Of a stretch of DNA of 64,000 bases, positions 1,296-64,000 are shown piece by piece. Numbering within the stretch: position 1 is the stretch's first letter; each line of letters starts with the position of its first letter. Where the stretch lies: assembly GCA_963771045.1 (NCBI GenBank), contig CAVYRW010000004.1, positions 1,600,001-1,664,000 of the forward strand, read 5' to 3'. Origin of the DNA: Waddliaceae bacterium (GTDB taxonomy: Bacteria; Chlamydiota; Chlamydiia; Chlamydiales; SLFE01). The notes beneath the pieces are model-generated. The model was given only the letters and a program-made list of their open reading frames with translations. It was not told the origin of the DNA and did not search any database. A program made the translations under genes and the position numbers.

Positions 1296-2594
1296 AAGGA
1301 AACCTCTTTGCGAAGCCGCCAGATTCCATAGCCGTTAAAGACCAGAAGCATTATCTGAATAAGCGACATGACTGTGAGCGCCTGATAGCTATCAAAAAAG
1401 GTAAAGGCCATCAAAAAGAGCGTGGCAAAAGCCAAAAAGAATTTCCGTCCCCAGTTTGGAGAGAGGAACTCTGCGCACTTCAAACCGACGCAAAAGTAGG
1501 CGATAATCGTGGAATATCCCAAGAGCAAAATAAATACAGGCATGAAGTATTCCATATAGGGAAAATATTGGGCAAGCGCCGTCTGTACGAGCAGCGTGGG
1601 CGGAATTTCCTGAGTCCAAAGCCCTGTCACAAGCACTAGAAAAATGCTGATGGTGCAGACAACAAAAATATCCAGAAAGAGATCGATAAAAATCAACGAG
1701 GACTGTTTTTCGGGTATCTGGGAGCTGGTCTCGCTATGGATGACAGACGCGTATCCGATCCCGACGTCGCTGGCATAACATCCCCTCCGAATTCCTTGGG
1801 AAATGGTCACCATCAGACCGCTTCCGATAAACCCTCCTGTCGCTGCATGGCCGGTAAAAGCCGACCGGAACACAATCTTGAATGCCGACGGAATTTCGGA
1901 TAAATTATTTGCCAGAACCCAAAGTCCCATCCCCAAAAAGATCAAAATAAAAAACGGAATGATCGCACTGGATATTTCTCCGACGCGGCTTACCCCCCGC
2001 TTCCCGCATAGATCACAAGGGCAAGCAAAGTGAAGGCGACAACATAGTAATTCAGTGAAAAGTTTTCCGTCAGGCTTTCGGTCACAATCCTGAACTGATA
2101 GACTTCAACTCCGTAAACGCAAAGTAAAAGCGCAACAAAGCCGGGAATCCACATCGTCTTGAAAACCCGCTGTAAAAAATACATCGGCCCGCCGTTGTAA
2201 CCGCCTTCATTATTTTTGACTCTGTAGCGGATCCCGAGATAAACCTCGGAATACTTCATTGCCATACCCAAAATCGCCGTTATCCATATCCACAGCAGCG
2301 CGCCGGGACCGCCGATCTGCACCGCTGTGCAGACAGCTACAATATTTCCGATACCGATACATCCGCCAAGGCATGCGAAAAATGCTTTCAAAGGATGAAC
2401 GCCTATGTTTGATTCTGCTTAGGGGAGAACAATTTAAAAAAACTTGACCAGAGCCTCGGGAAAGCGGCGCACCTGAACAAAGCGAGATAAAATGGACAAC
2501 GCGAGGCCCAAAAGCACAATGACTGGGAAACCCGATATAGGACCAGAGATTATCATCAATTATACCTCAGAGCATCAAAAAATAGTTGAAACAT
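1250..2594 (-). CDS. Na+/alanine-glycine symporter (AGCS family), split by frameshifts
   Basis: Fragments 1990-2391 (IGIGNIVAV..GGPGALLWIW..GGPMYFL) and 1250-1945 (GIRRGCYASDVGIG) are consecutive parts of one AGCS protein. Confidence 0.85.
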
Positions 2595-14353: not shown

Positions 14354-15315
14354 TGGATATACTGGCACACGAAAAAGAGATCTTTGAATATATCAAGACA
14401 ATCGACCACCTGAAAAGCAAAGGGGGCGAAAATCCCATTTTTTTCGACGAAATCTCCCGTCTTGAACAAAAGCTGGAAAAACTTAGGCGCGATGTCTACT
14501 CGAACCTAACGCCCTGGCAGCGGGTGCAGATTTGCCGCCACGCCTTGCGTCCGCACACGATCGACTACATCGCGAAAATGTTTTCCGGTTTTGAAGAACT
14601 TTCCGGCGACCGGCAGTTTGCCGACGACAAGGCCCTTATCGGAGGGTTTGCCCGCCTGGGGGATATCAAGTGCGTTGTGATCGGCCAGGAAAAGGGAAGC
14701 AATACGGAAGAGAGGCTTAAACGCAATTTCGGGATGATGCATCCCGAAGGTTATAAAAAAGCACTCCGCCTCATGAAGCTGGCCGAAAAGTTCCACCTCC
14801 CCATCATTACCCTGATCGACACGCCGGGCGCGTTTCCCGGCCTTGACGCCGAAAAAAGAGGGCAGGGCGCCGCCATTGCCCTGAATTTACGAGAGATGAT
14901 GCGGATCGAAACCCCAATCATTTCCGTTGTCATCGGAGAAGGATGCTCGGGCGGCGCGCTTGGCATCGGAATCGGAGACGCCATCGGCATGCTCGAACAC
15001 GCGTACTATTCCGTCATTTCCCCTGAAGGATGCGCCTCAATCCTATGGAAAGAAGCAGGAAAAAATGTCGATGCGGCAGCCGCACTCAAACTCAATTCCG
15101 AAAATCTTATGGACTACGAAATCATCGATGAAGTAATCGGAGAACCTTTGGGCGGAGCCCATCACGATCCGGAAGTTGTTTATGACAATGTGAAACGGTT
15201 TATCCAAGACAAATGGGACGTCCTCAAACTCCTTCCCCCTCATCTTCTCCTCGAACAACGATATAATAAATACCGAAAAATCGGACAATTTTCAAAAAAT
15301 GAAGCTTCTATTTAG
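14353..15315 (+). CDS. accA: Acetyl-CoA carboxylase carboxyltransferase alpha subunit
   Basis: LTPWQRVQ, RNFGMMHPEGYKKALR, IDTPGAFPG, GEGCSGGAL, YSVISPEGCASILW. Confidence 0.97.
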   Translation: MDILAHEKEIFEYIKTIDHLKSKGGENPIFFDEISRLEQKLEKLRRDVYSNLTPWQRVQICRHALRPHTIDYIAKMFSGFEELSGDRQFADDKALIGGFARLGDIKCVVIGQEKGSNTEERLKRNFGMMHPEGYKKALRLMKLAEKFHLPIITLIDTPGAFPGLDAEKRGQGAAIALNLREMMRIETPIISVVIGEGCSGGALGIGIGDAIGMLEHAYYSVISPEGCASILWKEAGKNVDAAAALKLNSENLMDYEIIDEVIGEPLGGAHHDPEVVYDNVKRFIQDKWDVLKLLPPHLLLEQRYNKYRKIGQFSKNEASI

Positions 15316-17219
15316 ACTCTCGTTTCAAAAACACGCCAATTTCCTTTTGATCGCGGTCACCATGCTTTCGATGTGCCTTTTTACCATCGGCACACAGATG
15401 GAAATCATCACTATCGGCATCCTGACAAACAAAGGACCGGGATTTTTTGAACTGTTCAGCCCCGTAAAAAATAATGAAATCGTCCAGTCGGATAAAATTA
15501 CCCGAAAACAGCTTGACAAGCGATGGAACGAACTGGATCAGAACAGACAAAGGATATATCGATCGAATGGATACCGCCCGCTTTGCCCGCTCTGTCAAAC
15601 CAAAAGGACTTGTCGACAGGTCTATCTATTATTTAAACCGGATCATTCCCCTGAGCGGCAACCCCCGCAATCTCGCCATCATATTCATTATTGTCGCCCT
15701 CTTCAATGCTGCCGCGATGTTCTGCCACCGCTTTTCTACAAAAATTGTGGCCATCCGGGTCAGCCGCGATTTGAGGCAGAATTATTTCGAACACATCCAA
15801 CTGCTACCCATGAGTTTTTACCAGCAGCACAACATCGGAAGCTTATCTGCCCGAGTCGTCACCGATGCCGTTGCCATTGCCGATGGGATCAACGCCTCGC
15901 TGATCAATTATCTGCAAACTCCCTTCGCGATAATGTCAACCCTGGCCCTTTGTTTCATCGCTTCATGGAAATTGTCCCTCATGATCTTTATGGGCCTGCC
16001 TCTGATTGCCTATCCTATCGTGTATATCGCCCGCCATGTGAAACGGATAGCGAAAGAGCTCCAGAAGAATCAAGAAAACTTCACCTCCGTGCTTGTCGAT
16101 TATCTTGGAGGCATCCAGACTATAAAAATGTTTGCTATGGAAAGTTTTTCCTTAAAAAAATATCGATGGCAAAACGAGCAGATGGCCAAGCTCGAACAAA
16201 AAAGCGCCAAATACGACGTCTCTTCACGGCCCATCGTTCATACGATCGGCATGTCCTTTCTGGCCGGCGCCTTAATCTTCGGACTCTACATCTTAAATAT
16301 GAGCGTTCCCGAGGTGATTGTCTACTGTGGGCTTCTCTATGTATTTTATGAACCGGTGAAAAAATTCGCCGAAACCAACGGGCAAATTCAAAGAGGAGCC
16401 GCAGCAGCGGAACGGATGTATGAAGTGATGCAGATCAAACCGCAAATTCAGGATGCTCCGGACGCCAGCGAGCTGACGGAATTTAACGAAAGCATCGAAT
16501 TTCGCAATGTCTCTTTCCGCTATGACGATGAATGGATCCTGAAAGATTTGAGTTTTACGGTGGAAAAAGGGCAGACTGTAGCCCTTGTGGGGCCTACCGG
16601 CGCCGGTAAGTCGACCATCGTCCAGCTCATGCCGAGACTCTATGATGTGCAAAAAGGACAAATCCTGATCGACGGCAAACCCTTAAGCGACTATACGCAA
16701 GCCTCCATCCGCAAACAGATCGCCTTTGTCCCGCAAAAGCCCTTTCTCTTTCTGGATACCATAAATGAAAATATCGCATTCGGGTCCCCTTATACCGAAA
16801 AGGACATTGAGGAGGCGGCAAAGAAAGCGCATGCCGTCGAATTTATCAAAAACCTTCCCAAAGGCTTTGAAACGGAACTTTCCGAAATGGGAAAAAATCT
16901 CTCAGGTGGACAGCAGCAGCGCCTCGCAATTGCCCGCGCCCTCTTCAAAAAAAACCCTATCCTGGTCATGGACGAAGCGACATCCTCTCTCGATGCCCTG
17001 AGCGAAAACTATATCAAAACCGCAATTCGCGAACTTCGCGGTTCAATGACCCAGATCATTATCGCCCACCGCCTTTCGACCGTAGAAGATGCCGACAAAA
17101 TCATCTATATAGACAAGGGACGAAAAATCGCCGAAGGAAAAAGAGATGAGCTTTTAACAATCTGCCCCGAGTTCAAACTTATGTGGGACATGTTAAACAG
17201 ACAAAAAACTCATGCATAA
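15299..17219 (+). CDS. msbA: MsbA-like ABC exporter (TMD+NBD), frameshift near 15545
   Basis: GPTGAGKST, LSGGQQQRLAIARA, VMDEATSSLD, IAHRLST; follows accA as in chlamydiae. Confidence 0.85.
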
Positions 17220-47884: not shown

Positions 47885-47957
47885 GGGGCAGTAGCTCAGC
47901 GGTTAGAGCTGCGGACTCATAATCCGTAGGTCGCAGGTTCGATTCCTGCCTGCCCCA
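47885..47957 (+). tRNA. tRNA with CAT anticodon (Ile2 or elongator Met)
   Basis: Cloverleaf: acceptor GGGGCAG/CTGCCCC, D arm AGCTCAGCGGTTAGAGC, anticodon arm GCGGA-CTCATAA-TCCGT, T arm GGTTCGATTCC; paired G1-C72 argues against initiator tRNA. Confidence 0.95.
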
Positions 47958-48113
47958 ATCTTATTCAGTGCATTCAAGGGCATTTCAGCTTGATAGACAA
48001 CAACTTTCAAGTTATGCATTTACCCTCGCGGTGCAATGGCGGTGCAGCAAAGAAATGTCTTACCAGCACCATCTAAGTCGCTCGAACCAAAACTTAACAA
48101 AAAGAGGTTTGAG

Positions 48114-49185
48114 ATGGCATCCATCTTCCAAAGAACGAACAAGGACGGTACCAAAGTCTGGCGGGCCGTCATCCGGATTAAAGGCCACCCCACAGTTTGC
48201 GATCACTTTCGACCGAAAGCAAGAAGCCCAAGATTGGGCGAATGAAACCGAACGGCAAATCAAGCTCGGCCGATACAATTTTGCCAAGCATGACCAAAAG
48301 AAGACGCTCGCCGACCTGATCGACCGATACATTGACGACGGCGTTCTCGACCACCATAAAGCCGCCAAGGATACCCGGCGACACCTCGATTATTTTAAAT
48401 CCCGGCTGGGAAAATATGCCCTCAACTTCCTTACCCCTGAGCTACTGATCGACGAAAGAAAAAAACTTTTGCAAACCCCAACTGAAAGAAGCACAAACCG
48501 GAGCCCCTCACAGTTAACAGATACATGTCATCAATGAGCGGGGTCCTTCGATATGCCTGTCGAAATTTACGCTGGATCAACGAAAACCCCTGCTCAAATC
48601 TCGTCAAACTTAAAGAAAACCCCAAAGAGCGCCGGACTCTATCAGAAGATGAGGCCGTACGCCTTCTGGCCGCCTGCAAAAAGAGCAAAAACCGCTATTT
48701 ATTCGCCATCACGCTGCTGGCAATGACGACCAGGCGCGCGCAAGGGAGAAATTCTTTACTAACTTGGGATCGCATGGATTTTGAACAAGCGATTCGCCCA
48801 CATTAGAGACTCCAAAAACGGCAAACCCCGAAGGGTCGGCCTTGTCGATTCAGTCCTCAAAGAACTCAAAAAGTTATTTAATGATCGCGATCCGGCAAAA
48901 CCTCTTGTTTTCGCCAGCAAAACAGCCTTCGGAAAAATCGACACCAAAAAGGCATGGAATAGAGCTCTCCAAGACGCCGGCATCAAAGACTTCGTCTTCC
49001 ACGGCTTGCGTCATAACTTTTGTTCAATTGGAGGAGAAATTGGAGCATCGGGCATACATCTTCGAACTCAATTGGGGCATTCATCGTCGAGCATGACGGA
49101 TCACTATTCACATTTGGACGCCGAGTCGACAAGATACATCGGCGAGTCAATTGAAAATCGTTTATTAGGAGGAAATCATGATTGA
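48114..49185 (+). CDS. Tyrosine integrase, several frameshifts
   Basis: MASIFQR..WRAVIR arm domain; ENPC; SKNG; FHGLRH..LGH..HYSH. Confidence 0.9.
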
Positions 49186-50190
49186 GCCTTTGGCAAAAAT
49201 TAAAGAAATTATCAACGATTTGCAGAATGGAATTGATCGAAAAAAACAAATCAGAGATCAAATTGTGCAAGACAATCCAGGATTGCAGGAATCACCCGCT
49301 GAAAAATGGAAGAAAGAAAAATCGAGGTGCCTGATCCATGCGGCGACTGATGTTTGGGAATTAATAGAACTTGAATGTCGCCACCCTTATCCTCCCCTAT
49401 CTGAAATGGCTGGCATGAACGCAAAAGAATGCGTTGCCTATTGGCGTGAGTGGCTCGAGCAAACCGAAGCATATTATGAACCATTTGAGGATTTTGAATT
49501 TGATGAACCTTTGAAAAATGAAACCTTAAGAGAATTTATCATTAGAATGGTTGAAACTGTGGAAGCCGAGGGAATTGACTCCAGATTGGAATGGCGAGCA
49601 CTAAAAAGCTTTTTAAATTATTTGAGACAAATCAACCACAAAGAATGGGCATTTATTGAGCATCTTTTCCCCAAAAAAATGGATATTTTTGATAAGAGGA
49701 TAATCAGAAAAGTCCCGCCCGAAATATACCCAATTTCTGAGATTCTAGTTGGGAAAATCATTCAAGAACTCATGAATATGACACTCAATGACCGCCCAAA
49801 TGCCCAACATACCGCCGCTAAGCCTTAGGATTATCATGGGTTTGTCTTACTACTGCCCGATTGCGATTATCCGTTCATTTGAAAACAAAGCTCTATTTTA
49901 TTTCATCCGAAGCAATCACTTTGAAAGAGAATATTCCCTATCTTTCAGTGCCGACATTATTCGGAGATCAAAAGATAAGAATATCTCATAGACTGGCCGA
50001 ATATCTTCTTGAGATTTCTATGATACCCTCGGAAAATTCTCGGCAAACCATTTTTCAAAAGCCATATAGAAGTTTAACCCGAACTTTTGAAAGAGCCCTC
50101 AAAAGAGTCAATGCTAACCCGGATCTTAGAAATATCACTTTCTTAACATTTCTCAGTGAACCGCATCCTTTTGAAATATACGATAGATAA
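49178..50190 (+). CDS. Hypothetical island protein (frameshift near 49820)
   Basis: ORFs 49178-49828 and 49861-50190 join through ALGLSWVCLTTARLR. Confidence 0.6.
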
Positions 50191-50320
50191 CTTCTTATCA
50201 TTCTATTTTTCAATAGGTTAGTCATTGTTTTCAAAACTGTCCACCACCGTGCCGACGCGATTTAGCCGGATTGATTCACAATAAGCGCAAATCAATTTTA
50301 ACTCATATGAGGAGGCGCTT

Positions 50321-50530
50321 ATAAGCGAGTATCAATATCTGACCGTTAAACAAATTTCCGAGAGTGACCGATACCCTTTTACTTTTGGGCAAATTCGCCA
50401 TTACTTATTGATGCGGCATCGAAATGGATTAGAAAGCTCGGTCCGAAAAATTGGAAAACGCATCTACCTGAGAAGCGACTTATTCGAGAAATGGATCGAG
50501 TCTCAATCAAAGGAAGGAGGGCAAGCATGA
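50321..50530 (+). CDS. Excisionase/AlpA-like HTH protein (ATA at the start position)
   Basis: SEYQYLTVKQISE..VRKIGKRIYLRSDLFEKWIE; RBS GAGGAGG upstream; stop overlaps the next ATG. Confidence 0.7.
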   Translation: MSEYQYLTVKQISESDRYPFTFGQIRHYLLMRHRNGLESSVRKIGKRIYLRSDLFEKWIESQSKEGGQA

Positions 50531-50837
50531 GAAACTTCCAATCACATTTAAACGCAACCAAAATAAAAGAGCACATAAATCCATATGACTTTTATTTAAG
50601 AGAGCAAGATTTGTGTCGCTTCGGATATCGTTCAAGCTCATGGGTCGTGGCAGGCCTATGTCCTTTCCACGAAGATAAACGAGCCGGATCATTCAAAATA
50701 AACGTTGAAACGGGCGCATTTCAATGCTGGTCCTGCGAGCTAGTGGCGGTGATATAATAACCTTCCTGCAAAAACGAGATGATCTTGATTTTCTGGAGAC
50801 TCTGAGAAAACTTTCAAATGAATGGGGGGTACGATAA
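50527..50837 (+). CDS. CHC2 zinc-finger primase domain protein (frameshifted)
   Basis: GLCPFHED..SFKIN..FQCWSC..GGDII.F. Confidence 0.85.
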
Positions 50838-52903
50838 TGCCCAGCATGGATAGCTTTTCTAAAATTCAAAATCATATGCCAGGTTATAAGTATCACTGGA
50901 TATATGTTGATCACGGTATACCCGTTATGACAGTCGCAAGATACGATCAAAACAAAAATAAAACATATCGGCAATTCATTCTGGATGACAATGAATGGGT
51001 CGAGGGGATGCCCCCATCCCCTTACCCCCTTTTCGGACTCCATTCGCTGAAAAATATTTACTCCCCTCAAATCTCTTTTCATCACTGAAGGAGAAAAATG
51101 CGCCAGCTTGCTTCATCAACTTAGATGGCCTTCAATTTCAACAGCATTAGGAGCCCAGAATCCCGGTAGTTCAGATTGGAATCCTACCAGATATTATACC
51201 CAATTCATTATTTTACGTGATAATGACAAGGCAGGTATATCCTTTAGTCGACAGGTTTCATCTGAAATTAGGAGGATTAATCATGACGCTGAAATTTTTG
51301 TAGTCAATCTAACACCTGAAATAAGCGGTGGAGATCTAGTTGATTGGCTTCAATCCACCGTTCTGAGGGGTCAGAATTGGGATGGATTTGAGCCGATTCC
51401 TCAAAATATGGTTGAAGCGGTTAAAACAGCTTGTGAAAATGAAATCCGGGAAAATCTGATAAATGTTGAAGACTGTCAAGAAGTAGACTATAAACCCATC
51501 GAAGCTCATTTTGAGAACGCTCCTCAGAAATTAATAATTGATTTGAGGCCGGTTCCAGAATTCCCCACTAACATTTTCCCGGAAAAAATAAGTCAATTTT
51601 TAGAAAAAACCTCAGCACAATTCTCTCAAGTCACAGATTTTGCGGCCACGACCCTCATTGCATCAGTCGGTGGTTTAATAGGTCGATCGGTTCACCTTCG
51701 TATGCGCCGATGTGATACATGGTATGAAACTGCAAACTGCTGGGCGATATTAGTCGGTCCGCCATCAGCAAAGAAAAGCCCTATAATGAGAAGAATTTTT
51801 CATTTATTCAAAAAGCTAGAGAAACAGGCAGCAGAAGAATTTGCCGACTCCAGCAAAACCTACAGAATTAAAAAACGAGAGGCGGAACAATCGAAGGAGG
51901 ACTTTGATGATCCCCCTCCGATTCGTCGAAGGTATATAACCGATGACGTCACTACGCCAAAGTTGCGTGAATTAATGTCAGGAAACCCACGAGGAATCAT
52001 ACTTCGAAACGATGAGTTGAAAGGGCAGCTGGAACGACTCGACAAAATCGGAAACGAAGGTGACCGATCATTTTATATGAGTTGTTGGTCCGGACTGGAA
52101 GAATACAATGAAGACAGAATGTGTCGCGACTCTCTTATAAATATCCCCCTCGCTCTTACTTGGATCGGATGTATACCTCAAACAGCCATTCAGCGATATC
52201 TACGACAAGCAATGAGCCATGGTAGTGGTGCTGATGGGTTTATGCAAAGATTTCAATTTATTTGCTTCCCGATCGAAAAAAAGTTTTCGAACTGTCTAAA
52301 GAGCCCGTGCCAAATGAACTGAAAATCGAAATTCAACAAATTTGGGAGAAGCTCGATAACGATGCAAAAAATTCAAATCGGATTTTAAATTTTAGCGAAG
52401 AAGCTCAGACGTTATTTAACGTCTGGCTGATAAAACACGAAAACAATACCCGATCAGGATGCCATCCAACCTATTGGGAAAGCCACCTCGGCAAGCAAGC
52501 AAAAGCGCTAGCCGTCCTGATTATTATCCTTCATCGTCTTGATGAAATCATTTGAGAAAAAATTGAAGAAGAAGTGCAACCTGAAACATTCCAAAAAGTA
52601 TTAGAAGCTCTATCATATTACGAAGCCCATGCTCAAAGATGCTATGAAAGCATTGCGGGCGGAACAGTTGCCGACGCAGAAATCGTATTAACCCTATTGC
52701 GTGAAAAACGACTTCCAGAAAAATTCAAGGCACAGGATATTTACCATCAAGGACTCGGTGGACTATCGGACTCAAGCAGGGTCCGCTCCGCTCTTGAAAT
52801 GCTTTACGATTACGGCTGGCTGGTCCCTGAAAAGATTTCCGGTAACACAGGACGCAAAGCTGAATTTTGGATTTTACATCCAAGAGCCTTTAAGAAAGAT
52901 TAA
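50837..52903 (+). CDS. Toprim + DUF3987 (YfjI-like) primase-helicase, frameshifts and one in-frame stop
   Basis: YPLFG, TEGEKCA, DNDKAG, GDLVDW; LVGPPSAKKSP Walker A, DELKG, DGFMQRF. Confidence 0.8.
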
Positions 52904-52971
52904 TATTTACTCCCCATAAACCACAAAAACCACTTTCTGTGGTTTATGGGGGTACAAAAAAGGAGTCAATT

Positions 52972-53478
52972 ATGACCACTGAAAAGAAAATTGAAGCAAA
53001 TCGCAAAAATTCTCAAAAATCCACCGGTCCCAAAACCAAAAAAGGAAAAGAAATTTCATGTCAAAACTCAATCAAACATGGCCTCTTATCTAAAACCCTT
53101 GTGATTAAAGGAGAATCTTCAGATTCATATGAAGTCTTCAGGAATGGCGTATATGATGATCTTCAGCCAATGTCTGCAATGGAAACCCTCCTTGTGGAAA
53201 AACTAGTCAATTATGCTTGGAGATTGAGAAGAGCAGTTCAAGCCGAAACAATCCTATTGGAAGATGGATTAAACGATCAGTGGTCTTCAAAAAAGCTAGA
53301 CTCATTCTTTAGTGGTTTTGAAGCCAAAAAAATCCAGAATATCAGCCGTTATGAGTCTACGATTGAAAAGCATTTTTACCGCTCCCTCAAAGAGCTTCGT
53401 GAGATTCAACAAATTCGAAAAGAATCGGAACAGACCAGAGATGACGATCACTTGTTTGGATTTGGCTTCGTTTCGTAA
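52972..53478 (+). CDS. Hypothetical protein of the 'ANRxNAxxSTGPKT..N..KHGL' family
   Basis: MTTEKKIEANRKNSQKSTGPKT..NSIKHGL..WRLRRA..RYE. Confidence 0.7.
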   Translation: MTTEKKIEANRKNSQKSTGPKTKKGKEISCQNSIKHGLLSKTLVIKGESSDSYEVFRNGVYDDLQPMSAMETLLVEKLVNYAWRLRRAVQAETILLEDGLNDQWSSKKLDSFFSGFEAKKIQNISRYESTIEKHFYRSLKELREIQQIRKESEQTRDDDHLFGFGFVS

Positions 53479-53496
53479 AAATGCATTTTTGCCAAA

Positions 53497-54095
53497 CTAA
53501 TCTTGGGTTTCGATTCTTTGCCGGCGTTCGTCTAAAGTTTCGCCATTATAAAGCCAATAAATTGGCCCTTGTACTTGAGGCGCCTTCCATCCCAATTCAC
53601 GCAGTAATTCTGAAGCGGCTGAACTTAAACTAGTTTGAACGCCCCGAAATCAATTACCTTTTCACTTACAACCTTGCAAGTTATTGCTTCGTTTCGAACG
53701 AACTGTAACTCTGCACCAATTGGAACCTTCGCAAGCGAAAAGCGGAAGGGTGGGCGTCTATCGGTAAACGCTTTTAGCTCAGATGTCATTTCAGATTCGA
53801 CCTGTTGGGTAATTTCTTCAACTGAAACGAGTTCCAAAACGGCCTTGACTCTGTTAGGGTCGACATGAAAAAACTCCCGATTTGATGGAACTCGTTGCTC
53901 ACCGAATGCAAAATGCAGCTGTTTTTCAACAAAGGCGGCATTTTCTACCCAAGCTGCAAAAAAGCACTCAAAGGGATATGGAACTGATGTTTTGAACAGA
54001 TCCCGCATACGTTGTTGTAAACTGGTCGATGTTCGACCGATTTTGACCAATCCTGGCATACACTCATTAGTCAGAATATAGATGATTTCTTTCAT
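53497..54095 (-). CDS. GIY-YIG (T5orf172) nuclease with C-terminal RAMA-like domain, frameshift near 53630
   Basis: IYILTN..PGLVKIGRT..R..L..TSVP..E..LH..REFF; alternate frame continues SAASELL..VQGPIYWLYNGETL. Confidence 0.8.
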
Positions 54096-54098
54096 TTT

Positions 54099-54866
54099 TC
54101 AATTTCCCATAGCTAAAGTCATATTTTGGTTATAAATGCAAAATGAACATTGATTAGAAAATTCAGGAATTGTTTCACTTTCGAGACATGATTTAATTTT
54201 CTTTAGAGTAGGCTGAACCCAGCAATCATTCCCCTCCCAAGGGATTAAAACTTTTTCAAAAATTAATTGATCATCAAAAGACTCACACTCTTTTAAAGCA
54301 TTAGCGAAGAGAAAATAACCAGTATTTGAAACCTCGAATCCATTTTTTCGAAAAAGCCATTGGTAGAACTCAAGCTGATTCACATAGCTGATCAAATAAC
54401 GATCTGTCTGATAAATCTGACCATTCTTTTTTCTTTTAGGCTCAAGGGTAATCTTCCCGGTCGTCGCTTTTGCCTTGTAATCCACAATTACGATCTCCCC
54501 GGATGGCAGTTCCCAAATATCATCGATTGCCCCATACAGCAAGAAATTAGTCTCAGGATCAAGATATTGTATCCCCCTTCTATTATTTCGCCAGGTCTCA
54601 ATCTCAGGATGGGAAAATGGAATGGCATTTACCCCCATACATTGGATGAATGGATGAACACTCTTAGAAGTCCGGTACTTGTCAAACTCCCTCTTTAATA
54701 GAGCGTCAACTGCATTGTTCAATGTGAACGGCGCACCTGAAGGTTGAGAGATACCCAACTTGCGATCAAGGTAAAAACATCTAGGACACTGTAGATACAG
54801 TTCTATCTTGGATCGGCTTAACTTAAAGCACTCATTTGAGTTATGCTTATATAATTTTTTTTTCAT
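54099..54866 (-). CDS. PD-(D/E)XK nuclease, RecB/AddB/Cas4-like
   Basis: LSRSKIELYLQCPRCF, GAIDD..IVDYK, QLEFY, C-terminal CSFC. Confidence 0.85.
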   Translation of the reverse strand: MKKKLYKHNSNECFKLSRSKIELYLQCPRCFYLDRKLGISQPSGAPFTLNNAVDALLKREFDKYRTSKSVHPFIQCMGVNAIPFSHPEIETWRNNRRGIQYLDPETNFLLYGAIDDIWELPSGEIVIVDYKAKATTGKITLEPKRKKNGQIYQTDRYLISYVNQLEFYQWLFRKNGFEVSNTGYFLFANALKECESFDDQLIFEKVLIPWEGNDCWVQPTLKKIKSCLESETIPEFSNQCSFCIYNQNMTLAMGN

Positions 54867-54983
54867 AAAATATTCATATTATTAAATATACAGAACACAT
54901 TAAATGCTATATAAAAACATAAAGTTATGTTAATATACATAGATTAAAAGATCAAATAATTTTAATTATAAAAAAATAATTAT

Positions 54984-57646
54984 ATGAAAATAAAACCAAA
55001 TGATAAGAACATACGATATCAGATTCACGAATTGCTAAACAATTTATCTGAAGATCAATTCATTTATGATTTACTTGCATGTTATGGTAAACCCAAAGCC
55101 TCTATTACAAGATTAAAAAAGGGTCACTACAATGCATCCAAAAACAAAAATGAAGTTCTTTGGAAAAAAAACTTATACTTCAAGCATACCGATTCAAAAG
55201 AACTATATTCTATTATAGACGAATTAAAATACAACAATCAAATATCAAAATATTCACCCCGTTTTATAATTGTTTCAAATTACAGAAATTTTTTAGCCGA
55301 AGATACCAAAACTAATGAAACACTAGATATTGATATAAACGAATTACCAGAATACTACGACTTTTTCCTACCTTGGGCTGGTAAGGAAAAAGTTAAACAT
55401 AAAAGTGAACGTTTTGCTGATATAAGAGCTGCTGAAACTATGGCTAAACTATATGATGCTATTAAGCGAGATAACCCAAGCCAAAATATTAAAACCACAC
55501 ATGCACTTAATGTGTTTTTTTCTCGAATATTATTCTGTTTCTTTGCTGAAGATACAAATATTTTTGAAAAAGGGTTGTTTACGGATTCGATTGCCTCACA
55601 TACAGAAAATGATGGCTCTGACCTTAAATCTTATTTAACAAAGCTTTTTCAATCATTAGACGAACGTGATAAATCTTCTTATCGAAAATTTTTGCAAAAA
55701 TTCCCATATGTAAATGGCAATCTTTTCTCAGAAAAATTCCATAATCCTAAATTTTCAAGAAATTCACGAAAGATTCTCTTGAATGTGGAAAAGCTAGACT
55801 GGTCTTTAATCAATCCAGATATTTTTGGTTCAATGATACAAGCTGTTGGAAATCCAAATCACCGCAACGAGCTAGGTATGCACTATACATCAGTCTCTAA
55901 CATTATGAAGGTCATAGAACCACTATTCTTAAGGAATCTGTACAACGAATTTCGAAAAGTCTGTAAACGACAAAAAAAAATTAAAACGGCTTTTAGATCG
56001 AATATCAAGAATTCAAATATTTGATCCTGCTTGTGGTTCAGGAAACTTTCTAATTATTGCCTATAAAGAACTAAGAATCCTTGAAATGAAAGTGCTTGAA
56101 AGATTACAAACAATTACGCGGCAAAACATATGTCCCTGGTCACGTATATCCCTTTCTCAATTTTATGGAATTGAAATAGATGATTTTGCACATGAAATTG
56201 CAATTCTTTCATTATGGATTGCTGAACATCAATTAAACGTTGAATTTTTTACAAAATTGGCAAAAAACGTCCGTCCCTTCCACTAAAGAAAGGAGGGAAT
56301 ATAGTATGCAAAAATGCGACAAAAATAGATTGGAATGAAGTTTGTCCAAAAAATAAAAATTCCGAAATCTACGTAATCGGAAATCCTCCCTATTTAGGCA
56401 CTCGCAACCAAACTCAGGATCATAAAGATGATATGTCATTTGTCTTCCAGGATTTTAAAATTTATAAGAATCTTGATTATATTTCTTGTTGGTTTTACAA
56501 AGGTGCGGAGTACATAAAAGGACATTCAGCTTTCTTAGCGTTTGTATCAACAAATTCAATAACTCAAGGTGATCAGGTTTCACTTTTGTGGCCGTATATA
56601 TTTGCAAAGAATATCGAAATTGGGTTTTGTCATCAGTCATTTAAATGGACAAATAATGCAAAAAAGAATGCCGGTGTTTCATGCGTAGTAGTTGGTCTCA
56701 GAAATTCATCAATTTCCCCAAAAGCAATTTACACTGGTGATCATATGATTCAGTGTGAACAAATAACGCCCTATTTGACATCAGGTCAAAATATTACAGT
56801 TAAAAAAAGGAACTCTAGTCTTTGTAATTTACCAAAAATGTCATATGGAAATTACACAGGTGCATGTGGACCTCTGATACTTAGTAGCACCGAAAAAAAT
56901 GATTTAACAACAAAATTTCCAAAATCTAAAAAGTTTATCCGAAAATTTATTGGCTCAAACGAATTTATTAACGGAATTGACAGGTATTGTATTTGGATTA
57001 GAAATGATCAACTCAAGGAAGCAAGTTTAATACCAGATATACAAAAAATAATTTGCAAAGTTCGTAAAGCAAGAAAAAAATCTAAAGATCCTTGTATACA
57101 AAAGTTAGCTTTACGTCCCCATCAATTTAAGAGATCTGAAAGAAGTTAAAAGAACTGCCATTGTAGTTCCGATAGTATCTTCAGAAAAAAGAGACTATAT
57201 CCCCTGCGGTTTTGTAGACAAAAAAACGATTATTCCTAATTCAGCACAGGCGATTTACAATTCTGATCCATATGTCTTTGGAATTATTTCTTCAACGATG
57301 CACATGACATGGAAAAGCTGTAGCAGGAAGACTAAAAACTGATTATAGATATTCATCTTCCCTTTGTTACAACACATTTCCGTTTCCAAACATTTCAGAA
57401 AAACAAAAAGCATATATAAACACAAATGTACATAAAGTCATTGCTGAACGACAAAAACATACAGAAAAAACACTTGCTGAACTTTATGATCCAACTAAAA
57501 TGCCTTCGGGATTATTACGTGCTCATCAACAACTTGATAGAGCTGTCGAATGTTGTTACAGATCAAAACCATTTTCAAGTGACGAAGAACGTCTAGAATA
57601 TCTTTTTAAACTTTATAAAGTAATGATGGAAAATAAAGGTTGTTAA
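54984..57646 (+). CDS. MmeI-like / YeeA (DnmA)-like N6-adenine DNA methyltransferase with target-recognition domain, ~5 frameshifts
   Basis: RILFCFFAEDT, FPYVNG.LF, PDIFGSMIQ, GMHYTS, FDPACGSGNF, GNPPYLG, STNSITQG, YNTFPFP, LYDP..MP..AH..LD. Confidence 0.88.
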
Positions 57647-57648
57647 CC

Positions 57649-59567
57649 ATGCCTAACATTGTTGATATTACTTACGAGCAAACCGGCAATAGCACAAAAA
57701 CTAACTCCATGGGTATGCGTGAGATGCAAGAACGTGTATACTCAGTCAAAGATGAACAGTATATTTTACTAAAAGCACCCCCTGCCTCTGGTAAATCACG
57801 AGCCTTAATGTTTGTAGCTCTAGATAAATTGCATAATCAAGGAATAAAAAAAGCTATCATTGCTGTTCCTGAAAAGGTTATTGCTAATTCGTTTCAAAGA
57901 ACAGACCTAGCCTCGGATGGCTTTTTTACAAATTGGGAGCCAAACCCAGTCTTTAATTTATGTACATCTGGAGGAGACAAAAAAAAAGTTGAATCTTTTA
58001 TTAACTTCATGAACAGTAATGAACAAATTCTTATCTGCACTCACTCCACCTTGCGCTATTCATTTGCAATATTTCCGATGATTTTTTTAATAAAACCCTT
58101 CTTGCAATAGATGAATTTCATCACGTTTCATCAGATTGTGATAATAGGTTGGGTGAATTATTGCGTTCTGTCATGGCAAATTCCACTGCTCATATAATGG
58201 CCATGACTGGCTCATATTTCCGAGGTGATTGTGTTCCAGTTTTACTACCAGAAGATGAAGCAAAATTTACAAAAGTTACATACAACTATTTCGAACAGCT
58301 AAATGGATATACATATTTAAAATCTCTTGGAATTGGATATCACTTTTACCAAGGCCCTTATACATCGGCAGTTGATAATGTGCTTGATACAAATAAAAAA
58401 ACAATCCTCCATATACCCCATCCACAATCTGGAGAATCCACAAAAAATAAAATAAACGAAGTTGATACAATTATTGACACAATAGGTTTAGTAAATTTTG
58501 TTGACCCTTTAACAAGTATTATCAATGTAAAACGTCATGTTGACGGTAAAATGATTAAAATTGCTGATCTGGTAAATGATGATTACATGACCCGTGAAAA
58601 AATTACACGATACTTGCGTCAAATCAAACATGAAGATGATATCGATCTAATTATTGCATTAGGAATGGCCAAAGAGGGATTTGATTGGCCTTTCTGCGAA
58701 CATGCTCTAACAATTGGATATCGTGGGTCGCTAACTGAAATTGTGCAAATTATTGGACGATGTACACGTGATAGCAGCAACAAAACTCATGCACAATTTA
58801 CTAATCTTATAGCTCAACCAGATGCAGATGATGAACAGGTGAAAATATCTGTGAATAATATGTTAAAAGCAATTACCTGTTCACTTTTAATGGAACAAGT
58901 ATTAGCACCCAATTTTAAATTCAAGACAAAACAAACTGAAAGTGATAAACCTAAAGCAGGAGAAATCAAAATTCATGGCTTTAAGGAACCTAGCTCAAAA
59001 AGAGTAAAAGACATTTTAGAAACAGATATTAACGACCTTAAAGCAAATATTTTACAAGACGAAAATATATTAAAAGCTATTCCGGGGAATGTAGAGCCTG
59101 AAATTATTAATAAAGTGATGATTCCTAAAATTATAAAAACAAAGTACCCCGACCTTGACGAACAACAGGTAGAAGAAGTGAGGCAACATGTTGTGGTTGA
59201 TTCTGCTATCAAAAATAGTGAAATTCAGCAATCTGGCGATAAACGCTTTATCCGAATGGCAAACCAATTTGTAAACATCGATGATTTACACATAGATCTA
59301 ATAGATAGTATCAATCCTTTTCAAAAAGCTTTTGCTATTCTCTCAAAATCTGTAACACCTATTGTTCTTAAATTAATACAAGAAACAATAGAAGAAACAC
59401 GAATTCAAATGACAGATGAAGAAGCTGAATACCTTTGGCCTCAAATTAATCAATTTGTAGCAATAAATGAATGTGAGCCAAATTTAAATTCTCTTCATTC
59501 TCACGAAAAACGATTAGCCGAGGCCATCGTATACTTAAAAAAGCTAAAGCGAGAAATGGGGTTATAG
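57649..59567 (+). CDS. YeeB-like superfamily-2 helicase/ATPase, frameshift near 58070
   Basis: GMREMQ, APPASGKSRALMF, IDEFHH, MTGSYFRGD, EGFDWP, QIIGRCTRD. Confidence 0.88.
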
Positions 59568-60734
59568 ATGGAAAGAGAGAAATTATTGAATTTAATAAAA
59601 GAGGATAAACACGGAATTCTTGCTTCTAAGACCAAAAGCTCAACAATTTGCACTCCTGAAAATAGGCTTATTTCATCATTTGAAGAAATAAATGAATTCG
59701 TTGACGAAAGTGGAAATGAGCCAAAACAAAGTAATAAAAATATTAAAGAATACCAACTATTCACACGACTTGAAGCAATCAGAAACAACCCTGAAAAAAT
59801 CAGGATACTTCAGGACTACGACAGGCATCAGTTATTAGGTGAAATAAAAAAGACATTGTCAATCCATGATATTCTTAAAAATTGTCATTCAGAAATCTTT
59901 CAGAATCTTGAGAATAATATTTTTGACTTAACCAACATACCTAAACCCTTATCTTCGCCAGACTATATTGCAAAACGAACACCTTGCAATGATTTTGAAT
60001 CCTTTAAAAAACTTTTTAAGAAATGTCATAGCGACCTAGCTTCAGGTAAAAGGATAATACGACCGTTTTCGAAAGAAATAAAAAAAGGACAATTCTACAT
60101 TTTAAAAGGTATTTTACTTTATGTTGCCGAAATAGAAAAGCCTCAGATTATTTCTGGAAGAGAAAATCCTCGTCTTCGTTGCATTTTTGAAAATGGTACT
60201 GAATCTGATATGCTCCAACGGTCGCTATCAGCTGAACTTTATAAAGACGGAAGACTTGTAACTGAACACAGCAACAAACTTTTGGATGAATTTACCTCCA
60301 TATCAAATGAAGATATAGAATTTGGATACATATATATCGCAAAGTCCTTAAGTGAATCCCCAAAAATAAAATCTATAAATAACCTATATAAAATTGGTTT
60401 CTCACGCTCAACTGCTGAAGACAGAATTAAAAATGCTGAGCAAGAACCAGCTTTTTTGATGGCCCCAGTTCAATTAGTAGCATCTTATAAATGCTACAAT
60501 GTCAAACCTCAAAAATTAGAAAATAAATTACACGCATTTTTTGGAGGGGCATGTCTAAATTTGGATATATTTGATAAACACGGCAAAAGGTGCTGCCCAA
60601 GAGAATGGTTTGTTGCTCCCTTAGATGCAATTGAGTATTCTATCGGTCTTCTTCTAAATGGAAAAATTACAAAATTTAAGTATGATTCAGTTTTGCAGGC
60701 AATTGTTCCCAAGAATTTAGAAATAAATAAATAA
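59568..60734 (+). CDS. YeeC-like protein with C-terminal GIY-YIG (T5orf172) nuclease
   Basis: RLRCIFENGTESDML.RSL, GYIYI..LYKIGFS..R, LE..LH.FF, PREWF. Confidence 0.88.
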   Translation: MEREKLLNLIKEDKHGILASKTKSSTICTPENRLISSFEEINEFVDESGNEPKQSNKNIKEYQLFTRLEAIRNNPEKIRILQDYDRHQLLGEIKKTLSIHDILKNCHSEIFQNLENNIFDLTNIPKPLSSPDYIAKRTPCNDFESFKKLFKKCHSDLASGKRIIRPFSKEIKKGQFYILKGILLYVAEIEKPQIISGRENPRLRCIFENGTESDMLQRSLSAELYKDGRLVTEHSNKLLDEFTSISNEDIEFGYIYIAKSLSESPKIKSINNLYKIGFSRSTAEDRIKNAEQEPAFLMAPVQLVASYKCYNVKPQKLENKLHAFFGGACLNLDIFDKHGKRCCPREWFVAPLDAIEYSIGLLLNGKITKFKYDSVLQAIVPKNLEINK

Positions 60735-60901
60735 ATACCTATTACAACATTTTTTTTGAGGTTACGGTGCAATGGAGGTGCAACGGTGCACAAATTCAGC
60801 CATCACCAACCCACACAAACCGATAGCAATCAATTCTTATCTCCCTTATCATTATACTCATAGCGACTGGATGGTAACGGTTGGTCGGGGATTCTCCCTC
60901 C

Positions 60902-60945
60902 CTCATAATCCGTCGGTCGTAGGTTCGATTCCTGCCTGCCCCAAT
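60902..60945 (+). repeat. attR: duplicated 3' half of the tRNA
   Basis: CTCATAATCCGTCGGTCGTAGGTTCGATTCCTGCCTGCCCCAAT vs 47916-47959. Confidence 0.95.
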
Positions 60946-61014: not shown

Positions 61015-61506
61015 ATGCAAAAAACAATAACTACAAAGCCTGAAATCATGTTAGTTGGAATCAGTGTTCGCACGAACTACGAACAGGAGCTGGATAAAAT
61101 GAAAGGGAAAATTTTCCCCTGCATACAGCGATACTTTCATGAGAAACTTTTTGAAATAATTCCCAATCGAACAAATCCCGATACAACATTTTGTGCCTAT
61201 ACTAATTATGACTCAAATTATCAGGGGGCTTATACATATTTTATTGGTGAAGAGGTCGCATTGCTAAATGCTCCGCTCCCAGAAGGATTTCAACAACTGA
61301 TCATTCCTTCACAGAAATACGTAAAATTTACAACTGCTCCAGCACCTATGCCTGAGGTAATTGTAAATGCCTGGAAAGATATTTGGAAAATGTCATCCGT
61401 AGAATTGGGTGGTAATCGTCGATACCATACCGATTTTGAAATTTATGACGATCGAGCCAAAGACCATCAAAATATTGTTTTAGATATATGGATAGGTCTT
61501 GAATGA
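61015..61506 (+). CDS. GyrI-like small-molecule-binding protein
   Basis: LVGISVRT..YTNYDS..YTYFIG..KY.KF..W..IW..R.Y.TDFEIYD. Confidence 0.85.
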   Translation: MQKTITTKPEIMLVGISVRTNYEQELDKMKGKIFPCIQRYFHEKLFEIIPNRTNPDTTFCAYTNYDSNYQGAYTYFIGEEVALLNAPLPEGFQQLIIPSQKYVKFTTAPAPMPEVIVNAWKDIWKMSSVELGGNRRYHTDFEIYDDRAKDHQNIVLDIWIGLE

Positions 61507-61545
61507 AACCTCCTTTAAACAATAGTGAAAATCTTCACATTTTGA

Positions 61546-61633
61546 CAAAAAGGTTGCCTGTGCGGCAGTGGACATAATACTGCTTCGGTAGATATTAACA
61601 AGACATTTCTAAGCTGCCTGCGTGGCAGTGAAC
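61546..61633 (-). CRISPR. Orphan type I-F CRISPR remnant: 2 repeats, 1 spacer
   Basis: Minus strand: GTTCACTGCCACGCAGGCAGCTTAGAAA (61606-61633), 32-bp spacer (61574-61605), degenerate GTCCACTGCCGCACAGGCAACCTTTTTG (61546-61573); canonical 28+32 I-F spacing. Confidence 0.85.
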
Positions 61634-61640
61634 CCAAGAG

Positions 61641-63038
61641 GAGAATGTCCCAAAATTAGTTGAAATTTTATCTTGAAAAGAGGTGGCTCCTATAGTCAAT
61701 ATGTAATTTTGACAAAAAACAAAAAAACAAAGGAGCCACAAGATGAATAGTCGCACATCACAGAATAAATCAACAGATCTTCTCTCATTTGCATGCCCCG
61801 AAGAGAAAATTGCTTATCTCATTGGAGCTGCTAAGGACGATTTCGATCAGTTTTTTATTTCCTTAAAGAAATGCTTGATCGAGTTTCTTTTTTCTTCAGA
61901 AAGAGAAATGCTTGCCGGACCTAAATACGATCCACTGCCCGGATGGGAGAAATGGGGATCTCAGGCGGGTTCTGTTTATGTGGGAGGAGAAAAATTAAAA
62001 GTAAAAAAGCCACGTTTGCGGAAGGATAAAAAGGAAGTCCAACTCTCTGTATATCAGGAACTAAATAATAAGGATAGATTTTCTGATGATCTCTTAGAAA
62101 AAGCTTTAAAGGGGATCTCTTGCAGGGAGTATGAGGGTGCGCTGGACGGTTTGCTTGACCACTTCGGTATTTCTAAATCCTCTGTTTCACGGCATTTGAA
62201 AGCGGCGACAAGTAAACAGCTTAAAGAATTAAAAGATAGAGATTTAAGCAGTTTTTCTCCCTTCGCTATCCTCATTGATGGTTATCATCTGGCAGGAAAA
62301 GTTTTTATTGTGGCAATGGCAATTGATCTTGAAGGAAATAAGCATTCTCTTGGTTTTTGGGAAGGTGCAACTGAGAATAATGTGATTTGTCAAGAGCTGT
62401 TGAACAATCTCGACCGCAGAGGACTAAAGCTTGATGAGAAAATACTTTTTATAACCGATGGAGGAAAAGGGATCATTAAGGCTCTGAAGGATAGGTTTGG
62501 AAAATTACTTATACATCAAAGATGTACGATTCATAAAGACAGAAATATCCAAAAGCATCTTCCCAAAAAATATCGAAAAGAAGCGCATCATCGCTTCCGA
62601 AATGCAATAAATTGCCTTGAGTATGAAGATGCTAAGAATGAACTCAAGAAATTGGAGAGTTGGCTTGAAACAATCAACCCATCTGCAGCGGAATCTCTCC
62701 GTGAGTGTTTTGAAGAACTCCTCACGGTGCATTGTTTAAAAGTGCCTCCTCGTTTGAGGAAGACACTGCATTCCACAAATCCGATTGAATCAGTGTTCTC
62801 AAATACAAGCCGGCGTATGGGCCGTATAACTCGTATTCAAACAAAGGGTAAAATGGCGCAAAGATGGTTGGGGACAACCCTCTTGGATGCAGAAAAAAGA
62901 TTTCGAAAAGTTAAAGGATATTTTTCAATCGAAGAGGTAAGGGAAAGGATAATCCGAATTCAGAGTGAAATAAAAACAAAGGTTGCGTAAACTGGTATAT
63001 GGAGTCACCGAATTTCAACTAAAAACGGGACATCCTCT
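61641..63038. mobile_element. IS256-family element, ~1.4 kb
   Basis: Imperfect IRs GAGAATGTCCC..TTAGTTGAAATT and AATTTCAACTAA..GGGACATCCTC; flanking direct repeat ACCCAAGAG at 61632-61640 and 63039-63047. Confidence 0.92.
61743..62990 (+). CDS. IS256 transposase, intact
   Basis: PRLR, GISCR, SKSSVSR, IDG, ITDG, QRCTIH, STNPIES. Confidence 0.93.
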   Translation: MNSRTSQNKSTDLLSFACPEEKIAYLIGAAKDDFDQFFISLKKCLIEFLFSSEREMLAGPKYDPLPGWEKWGSQAGSVYVGGEKLKVKKPRLRKDKKEVQLSVYQELNNKDRFSDDLLEKALKGISCREYEGALDGLLDHFGISKSSVSRHLKAATSKQLKELKDRDLSSFSPFAILIDGYHLAGKVFIVAMAIDLEGNKHSLGFWEGATENNVICQELLNNLDRRGLKLDEKILFITDGGKGIIKALKDRFGKLLIHQRCTIHKDRNIQKHLPKKYRKEAHHRFRNAINCLEYEDAKNELKKLESWLETINPSAAESLRECFEELLTVHCLKVPPRLRKTLHSTNPIESVFSNTSRRMGRITRIQTKGKMAQRWLGTTLLDAEKRFRKVKGYFSIEEVRERIIRIQSEIKTKVA

Positions 63039-63351
63039 ACCCAAGAGCATGACTTTTTATTGCGGTGTCTGACTACCTACAGACTGCCCCGTTAACGAAT
63101 ACACCTAATTCACTTAAATTAATATATCAGAATGACATTAATCCGACTTTACAAGCAGCAATTCCTGCTGGAGCTGAAATCGCTGAAACAGAATTAGTTA
63201 AAACAGACTCTTTCGTAGAATCGGTCTCTAATTTAACCGATCTTGAACTATTTTTAACCACTGACTCTTTTATCGTTCCCCTAGAGGAAACGCTTGAATC
63301 GCATTCTTTTTCCATGAAGCTTGAGTCAGAATTTCCAGCGGGAATTGCTGG

Positions 63352-64000
63352 CTTGCAGACATTATGGTTAAGAAATACGCCGACCACTTGCCTCTATACC
63401 GCCAAAGTGAAATGCGCGCAAGGGAAGATGTTAGGATAAGCCGGCAAAACCTTTGCACATGGGTTGTAAAAGCGGGTCTCGCCTTAAAACCCTTGTATAC
63501 ATTAATGAAAACAAAAATTCTTGAAAGTGAAAATGCTTTTGCGGATGAAACTCCTGTCAAGATGCTGGATCCCGGAAGAGGAAAAACTAAAGAGTCTTAT
63601 GTATGGGCGCTCGCTGGAGGAAAAACAAAAGATCCGCCTTATCGGATTTATCAATTTTTCGAAAACCGCAAGCATTGCAACGCGAAAGAACTTTTAAAAG
63701 GTTTCAAGGGGACTCTTCATTCCGATAAATATGGAGCTTATGAAACGCTGGCAAATATGAAGCAGTATACCTGGTGCCCCTGCATGGCGCACATTCGTCG
63801 TAAATTTTTCGATATCCAAAGCGGCGATAAAGAGTTTAAAGATTGGTTTTTAGCCCAAATTCAGGAGCTTTACAAGTATGAAAAAATCGCTTGGGAAAAA
63901 TCCCCCGAAGAACGATTAAAAATACGGCGGGAAGATGAGGAGTCGATCATCAGCGAAATGATCAAACAGGCGAAAAAAAAGCTTCAAGACCATAAAATTC
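63352..64000 (+). pseudogene. IS66 TnpC transposase fragment (5'-truncated, runs off window)
   Basis: KYADHLPLYRQ, ADETPVKML, LHSDKYGAY, CMAHIRRKF. Confidence 0.88.

Follow-up and report, generated by a model that had tools for sequence, protein, structure and literature searches.

A short repeat-spacer-repeat unit of CRISPR type I-F in the genome of a Waddliaceae bacterium is probably an inactive remnant of an ordinary array and not a working guide RNA. The unit lies near the right end of the window, by which we mean the whole stretch of 64,000 nt that was analysed (C4:1600001-1664000), in a genome assembled to 2.57 Mb in 5 contigs, none of them shown to be circular, with a completeness of 90.56%. 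Understood in this way the unit would be a fossil, evidence of type I-F CRISPR-Cas once present in this chlamydial lineage or in an element that it had taken up. It is composed of three parts:

61606–61633, minus strand: R1, a full 28-nt type I-F repeat with its 5-bp stem intact (Rfam, fold)
61574–61605, minus strand: spacer, 32 nt, 31% GC
61546–61573, minus strand: R2, a truncated repeat of which the first ~19–23 nt are repeat-derived and the remainder is methyltransferase sequence

R1 matched the Rfam family RF01317 (CRISPR-DR4) with 42.7 bits (gathering threshold 35; E 1.6e-6), which was the only match of this model in the whole genome, and 100 shuffles of the window gave none. The preliminary description of this DNA, made from the sequence by eye, had named a near-canonical 28-bp I-F repeat and a 32-bp spacer on the minus strand; the match to the I-F model holds, and the spacer reads at 61574–61605 as had been claimed. 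R1 differs from the commonest chlamydial repeat at positions 11 and 13, both substitutions being in the loop, and keeps the length of 28 nt, the 5-bp stem, the C6-G20 pair and the 8-nt handle. R2 starts exactly 60 nt from R1 and matched the consensus at 18 of 19 positions over its first bases, which is far above chance. A repeat spacing of 60 nt together with a 32-nt spacer is the geometry of a type I-F array. R2 was not listed by the Rfam search at E<=1; it carries T3C and G20A, and its stem is down to 4 bp by folding. No second copy of R1 was found within 8 mismatches on either strand of any contig of the 2.57 Mb genome. Among public contigs from 4 DNA sequencing runs none covered 61540–61640, so that the unit is known from this assembly only; one contig was identical to 61362–61539 but perhaps derives from the source sample. 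Frameshift-split genes occur at window positions 1250–2400, 15299–17219 and 48129–49185, which suggests long-read indel errors or pseudogenes, and single-base calls need care.

The left border of the unit falls within a gene, and here the initial interpretation of R2 as a 3'-degenerate trailer repeat had to be given up. The features on this side are:

61015–61506, plus strand: gene for a GyrI-like/Cass2 small-molecule-binding protein, intact, 163 aa, an accessory gene in a segment of 36% GC
61503–61556, plus strand: 5' stump (~17 codons) of a gene for a SAM-dependent methyltransferase, lacking one base relative to homologues
61551–61556, no strand assigned: junction zone, a 6-base word common to the repeat and to methyltransferase homologues

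A methyltransferase gene follows the GyrI-like gene with overlapping stop and start also in the metagenomic loci of its two nearest homologues (2 of 12 loci, 77% identical in protein) and in genome G164. The alignment score of the stump was reached by 0 of 2000 and 1 of 2000 shuffles for two homologues. Positions 61546–61555, the end of R2, matched homologous methyltransferase genes at 6–7 of 10 positions versus 3 of 10 for the repeat, and 61535–61556 agreed at 18 of 22 positions with the methyltransferase gene of G164, which is the nearest homologue. The 6-base word was exact in two of six close homologues, had one mismatch in three and two mismatches in one, and was missing from the distant methyltransferase paralogue in the Waddliaceae genome. 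The homologues compared at the junction share only 71–93% protein identity with the query homologue and are not the ancestor, which remained unseen, as no relative keeping an intact locus at the same place was found. From these alignments we infer that the repeat was joined to the methyltransferase gene by a microhomology crossover, and the exact crossover point is placed with the same reserve. Since the 3' end of R2 is a gene junction, R2 need not be a true terminal repeat, and a repeat that looks like a 3'-degenerate trailer can in fact mark a breakpoint. A repeat was absent from all 41 related gyrI/methyltransferase loci, some of these being the same place twice and many having flanks of 1.5 kb only, and the arrangement is therefore not conserved.

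Fused into a gene where a 6-base word resembles the repeat, the piece might also be a scar left when CRISPR was active in an earlier host, either through off-target (neo-CRISPR) integration or through an array piece that recombined with the chromosome after self-targeting, and a survey of Pseudomonas aeruginosa considers that isolated arrays may stem from off-target acquisition (PMC13142298). We regard this as quite improbable. A duplicated host sequence resembling the repeat would be expected from off-target integration, but R1 is a natural repeat in full, and the genome holds no further such units. The spacer matched neither the broken gene nor the genome well: as a fragment of the methyltransferase gene it showed 14–16 mismatches at best in 7 homologues, and its self-match on contig C2 had 8 mismatches and was flanked by AA, not CC. 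About one self-match of this kind is expected per 20 such genomes by a rough binomial estimate; the gene under it is, as we take it from its motif, endonuclease III-like.

On the right side the unit is bordered by mobile elements:

61632–61640, no strand assigned: left copy of the IS256 target-site duplication, overlapping R1 by 2 nt
61641–63037, plus strand: IS256-family element, transposase at 61743–62990, 7 bp from R1
63039–63047, no strand assigned: right copy of the target-site duplication, with one extra base at 63038
63048–63155, no strand assigned: unique 108-bp stretch, upstream of R1 before the IS256 insertion, not an I-F leader
63156–63350, no strand assigned: MITE of 195 bp, its usual 9-bp duplication missing, fused to the interior of IS66
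63351–64000, plus strand: IS66-family element, its first ~1.3 kb gone, interrupted by more IS past the window

An IS256 7 bp away with a duplication overlapping the end of the repeat had been described before and is present, the duplication being 9 bp long. As this duplication is intact, IS256 removed nothing. Five more near-identical copies (99.6–99.9%) with 8–9-bp duplications occur in the genome, which together with the intact duplication indicates a late arrival. Of the earlier view that the array was destroyed by insertion sequences, the part describing a leftover of a destroyed array stands as the best reading, while IS256 was not the destroyer. IS256 was also considered as the carrier of the array and rejected, as the flanks of the other five copies are unrelated and the repeat occurs just once in the genome.

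The 108-bp stretch scored 15–22 against 10 upstream regions of arrays in the leader test, which is like shuffles (49–281 of 300 reached it), while five true leaders used as a positive control scored 34–67 against one another. Searches for the origin of 63038–63155 gave three marginal matches (E 0.005–0.01) in 400 genomes and none in phages or plasmids, and its 34-codon open frame had a single match, to a repetitive protein of 6669 aa. A weak repeat-like trace at 63068–63096 was seen with two repeat variants that were chosen post hoc, its score being reached by 12–60 of 1500 shuffles and 76–190 of 1500 random genome pieces; with the other two variants 502–514 of 1500 shuffles reached it. The MITE lacks a transposase, has short terminal inverted repeats and is present in eight more full copies on C4. 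Seven of the nine full copies have the 9-bp duplication (one with a mismatch); it is missing at 63156–63350 and also at another copy, whose flanks are not reciprocal to the former. The fusion of MITE and IS66 is a deletion or rearrangement scar. The upstream part of the array would have been lost before the arrival of IS256, by an event that left no visible trace.

That the window contains no cas genes was borne out, and the same was found genome-wide. Profiles of Cas6f, Cas1 and Csy3 gave no match to the genome although the positive controls worked, and tblastn with 12 I-F proteins from two other Chlamydiota genomes yielded 8 segments at E<=1, the best with E 0.085. One Cas3f profile match (16.9 bits) was dismissed; it contains 3 stops, spans a transporter-like gene and was unseen by tblastn. 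Other CRISPR types were looked for by a scan for tandem repeats with periods of 55–80, which returned 7 rows, none of them array-like, and by the Cas1 profile, which gave no match. ORFs for tnsABC/tniQ were not seen near the unit, and a TniQ search was empty, its control also giving no match. A full I-F locus just downstream had been named previously as the finding that would make the unit an ordinary split array. The 16 kb past the window end hold neither repeats nor cas genes; they contain IS elements, a large DnaJ-domain gene and genes that we presume to be antiporter-like. The DnaJ-domain gene (L002:9585-15152) encodes an eukaryote-like protein of 1855 aa with the DnaJ domain at its N-terminus and a weak FYVE zinc finger, and is located among IS elements. 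Next to it (L002:8005-9581) is an IS200/IS605-type element with tnpA-like and tnpB genes, of which there are several near-identical copies; one copy elsewhere holds an IS256 insertion.

These results bear on whether the unit might belong, as a split or isolated array, to a working I-F system with unassembled cas genes, or be the homing array of a CRISPR-transposon. The genome is 90.56% complete and in 5 contigs, and isolated I-F arrays can act in trans according to the P. aeruginosa survey (PMC13142298). We nevertheless consider such an array very unlikely. The combination of no cas gene in a 90.6% complete genome with a single repeat copy speaks against a split array, as does the absence of repeats and cas genes from the 16 kb past the window and from the rest of the genome, and the incompleteness of the genome leaves a small gap in the case for cas absence. 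The unit further has no leader, whereas the isolated arrays of P. aeruginosa described in that survey all keep theirs (PMC13142298), and its spacer has no chromosomal homing target.

The former presence of a type I-F system would not be without parallel in the phylum. The statement that CRISPR is rare in Chlamydiae holds for type I-F, as cas6f was found in 7 of 400 other Chlamydiota genomes. The repeat pattern was found in 6 of 400, five with arrays accompanied by cas6f and one with a lone repeat without it (G191). All six I-F genes (cas1, cas2-3, csy1-3, cas6f) together with arrays were present in G017 (L062, C2), G048 (L066, C35), G256 (L080, C1), G273 (L081, C1) and G025 (L084, C112), while G252 and G288 carry partial I-F loci at contig ends. 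The chlamydial I-F1 arrays comprise ~25–78 repeats, and the I-F1 loci are spread over several Chlamydiota families; the I-F locus of G017 is surrounded by genes with homologues in the Waddliaceae genome. We found no literature report of type I-F in Chlamydiae, though supplements and databases may hold one. The sources that we consulted describe type I-E in Protochlamydia (PMC5010888, PMC5583166), types I-C and I-E in three chlamydial MAGs (PMC8242063 and supplement), cas genes in one MAG with the type not given there (10.1101/2023.03.17.533158), and I-F only in Legionella MAGs (PMC5654357); the main text of the I-F1 mini-array paper does not contain the string 'Chlamyd' (10.1101/2023.03.03.530964). 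A Legionella or shared amoebal donor, as suggested at first, is neither needed nor shown: I-F occurs in other Chlamydiota, and Csy3 of G017 was 50% identical to Csy3 of a Legionella plasmid versus 53–68% to other chlamydial and 55–58% to several other proteobacterial sequences in pairwise comparison.

Four of the complete loci encode an antisense two-repeat mini-array between cas3f and csy1 (L062:15285-15350 and L080:12680-12760 on the plus strand, L081 and L066 on the minus strand); none was found with the motif used in the regions of G025, G252 and G288. Judged from their sequences, these four are predicted to be csy1 self-repression guides of the crlRNA/CreR type, since in G017, G048, G256 and G273 they pair at 15, 14, 14 and 14 of 15 positions, respectively, with CC-flanked targets 66–121 nt upstream, which are located in front of csy1. 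This raises the question of whether the Waddliaceae unit might be a dead regulatory mini-array (crlRNA/CreR or CreA type) that was once located between cas3f and csy1 and through which Cascade would have repressed its own promoter or that of a toxin. Its two-repeat anatomy with a 3'-deviant second repeat would fit published descriptions (10.1101/2023.03.03.530964), and the DNA beyond 115 nt upstream of R1 is gone, the target of one control sitting 121 nt away. We consider this origin unlikely all the same, as the spacer paired nearby at 7 of 15 positions at best versus 14–15 of 15 in the controls, and there was no site in the genome with at least 12 of 15 and the seed (shuffled spacers: mean 0.9). 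Moreover, the first repeats of the controls are 5'-deviant and R1 is not, and tblastn found no trace of cas3 or csy1 on either flank of the unit.

No protospacer had been seen by eye in the window, and searches of viral, metagenome, genome, phage and plasmid collections and of the genome itself yielded none either. Two exact 18-mers of the spacer hit 2 and 0 loci in viral contigs, and both loci failed over the full spacer (12 mismatches). A 22-mer was absent from metagenome and from genome contigs, two patterns left free at each sixth position gave no match, and the best blastn results were E 0.9 in phages and E 3 in plasmids. Among 1445 spacer records from the retrieved arrays the closest had 15 mismatches, and the best match to chlamydial cas genes (7 loci) had 12. 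The lack of a target carries little weight, because the scans of collections were exact or near-exact and spacers of chlamydiae are reported to be generally without known targets (PMC5010888, PMC8242063). The pairing test for a regulatory target, given above, is the more telling one. A crude scan counted 5 promoter-like sites in 2.5 kb versus 6.4 expected, and none of them reads into R1. In published work on a single-spacer array, G20A in both repeats abolished I-F targeting (PMC3630108). Of the two repeats flanking the spacer R1 has the C6-G20 pair for cleavage and R2, with A at position 20, does not. As there is nothing to process or load an RNA and R2 carries G20A, the unit would make no guide.

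The proposal in the preliminary description of a stand-alone guide or repeat mimic thus found no support in Cas proteins, promoter, target or conservation. It would entail a functional RNA, either a Racr-like decoy or a guide lent in trans to incoming I-F machinery, with transcription possibly starting in IS256. In favour of it, R1 retains the 5-bp stem, the C6-G20 pair and the 8-nt handle, which is what RacrIF1 needs according to its description (PMC10651486), I-F systems circulate in the phylum, and G191 is a second genome without cas6f that has a lone repeat. On the other side, the unit is chromosomal, lies outside the neighbouring island and has no I-F system in its genome that it could inhibit or draw on; R1 is not preceded by a promoter-like site reading into it, 0 of 41 related loci conserve the arrangement, the spacer does not match cas genes, and R2 has G20A. 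We hold a function of this kind to be highly improbable, and there is likewise little likelihood that the intact R1 is transcribed as a chromosomal decoy jamming or borrowing the I-F machinery of plasmids and islands circulating in chlamydiae, with G191 as a second case. The lone repeat of G191 is a perfect I-F repeat (L079:5232-5259, C28) directly upstream of a GNAT acetyltransferase gene, which shares its Pfam family with one such gene of the gyrI cluster of L068.

The loop variant of R1 was matched perfectly at 14 loci in the species-genome collection, all from marine Gammaproteobacteria by title, and not in viral contigs. Whole arrays in Colwellia and Pseudoalteromonas have it as their consensus, in Bacterioplanes and Aliikangiella (L037, L047; arrays of the commoner repeat type) it is confined to the vicinity of the trailer end, and in a Porticoccaceae contig it lies inside the array (L036). 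Because the variant is also an array consensus or array-internal, it is no proof of a trailer position. The loop of R2 equals the consensus of G025 and G048, and the repeat sequence points to no particular donor. R1 is a perfect natural variant while R2 and the stump have decayed, and this contrast could reflect selection on R1.

The unit lies ~600 bp beyond the right attachment site of an island at a tRNA gene:

60902–60945, plus strand: duplicated 3' end of tRNA-Met (tRNA gene 47885–47957), right end of the 13-kb island, with the CRISPR piece outside

The GC content of the CRISPR-bearing segment is 36–37%, compared with 44.5% in the window left of the island. The DNA following the same tRNA-Met differs in each of four relatives, which indicates an insertion hot spot; two of the four have a gene there that is, we assume, integrase-like. 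The island itself (47958–60945) encodes a broken integrase, a primase/DUF3987 module, a PD-(D/E)XK nuclease, a T5orf172 gene, an MmeI-type methyltransferase in pieces, a helicase and a MUG113 gene, and a related island is found at this tRNA-Met in G001 as well.

If the unit is indeed an array remnant, its history might be reconstructed as follows. An ordinary I-F locus would once have been present, of which the surviving piece probably came from near the trailer end. One side was presumably cut by the microhomology join to the methyltransferase gene and the other by a likely earlier deletion, and IS256 would have come last, this order being our reconstruction. The low-GC segment may be what is left of an older element that had inserted at the tRNA-Met hot spot. 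The unit would then record the death of an array, with a short repeat-like word as the join point and a subsequent pile-up of IS elements. The complete chlamydial I-F1 loci with their four predicted self-regulating mini-arrays matter more than the unit, and the chlamydial I-F spacers offer a way to approach phages and plasmids of obligate intracellular bacteria, about which little is known.

Compared with known systems, the unit shares with the crlRNA/CreR/CreA mini-arrays, as published (10.1101/2023.03.03.530964; CreR 10.1101/2023.03.10.532045), the two repeats, the one spacer and the 3'-deviant second repeat. Unlike these it lies outside a cas locus and has a full 32-nt spacer, a canonical R1 and no PAM-flanked promoter target. 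RacrIF1, as described (PMC10651486), is likewise an I-F repeat without cas genes that retains the stem and C6-G20, whereas our unit is chromosomal with no promoter found, is followed by a spacer and second repeat, and resides in a host without an I-F system. The I-E system of Protochlamydia and the I-C and I-E systems of chlamydial MAGs are similar in being sporadic and horizontally gained by environmental chlamydiae, with spacers lacking known targets in the reports available (PMC5010888, PMC5583166, PMC8242063); the unit differs from this earlier chlamydial CRISPR by its subtype I-F and by being a fragment only, with complete loci in other Chlamydiota. Orphan I-F arrays are mentioned for E. 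coli and Salmonella (PMC3630108) and are described as remnants in the P. aeruginosa survey (PMC13142298). From these the unit is set apart by its one spacer, the lack of a leader, an R2 cut and fused to a gene, its chlamydial host and a spacer with no anti-cas match. It resembles the arrays of that survey (PMC13142298) in its I-F repeats, its spacer of normal length, the absence of detectable cas genes and the adjoining mobile elements, and it is an ordinary member of this known class of orphan I-F arrays.
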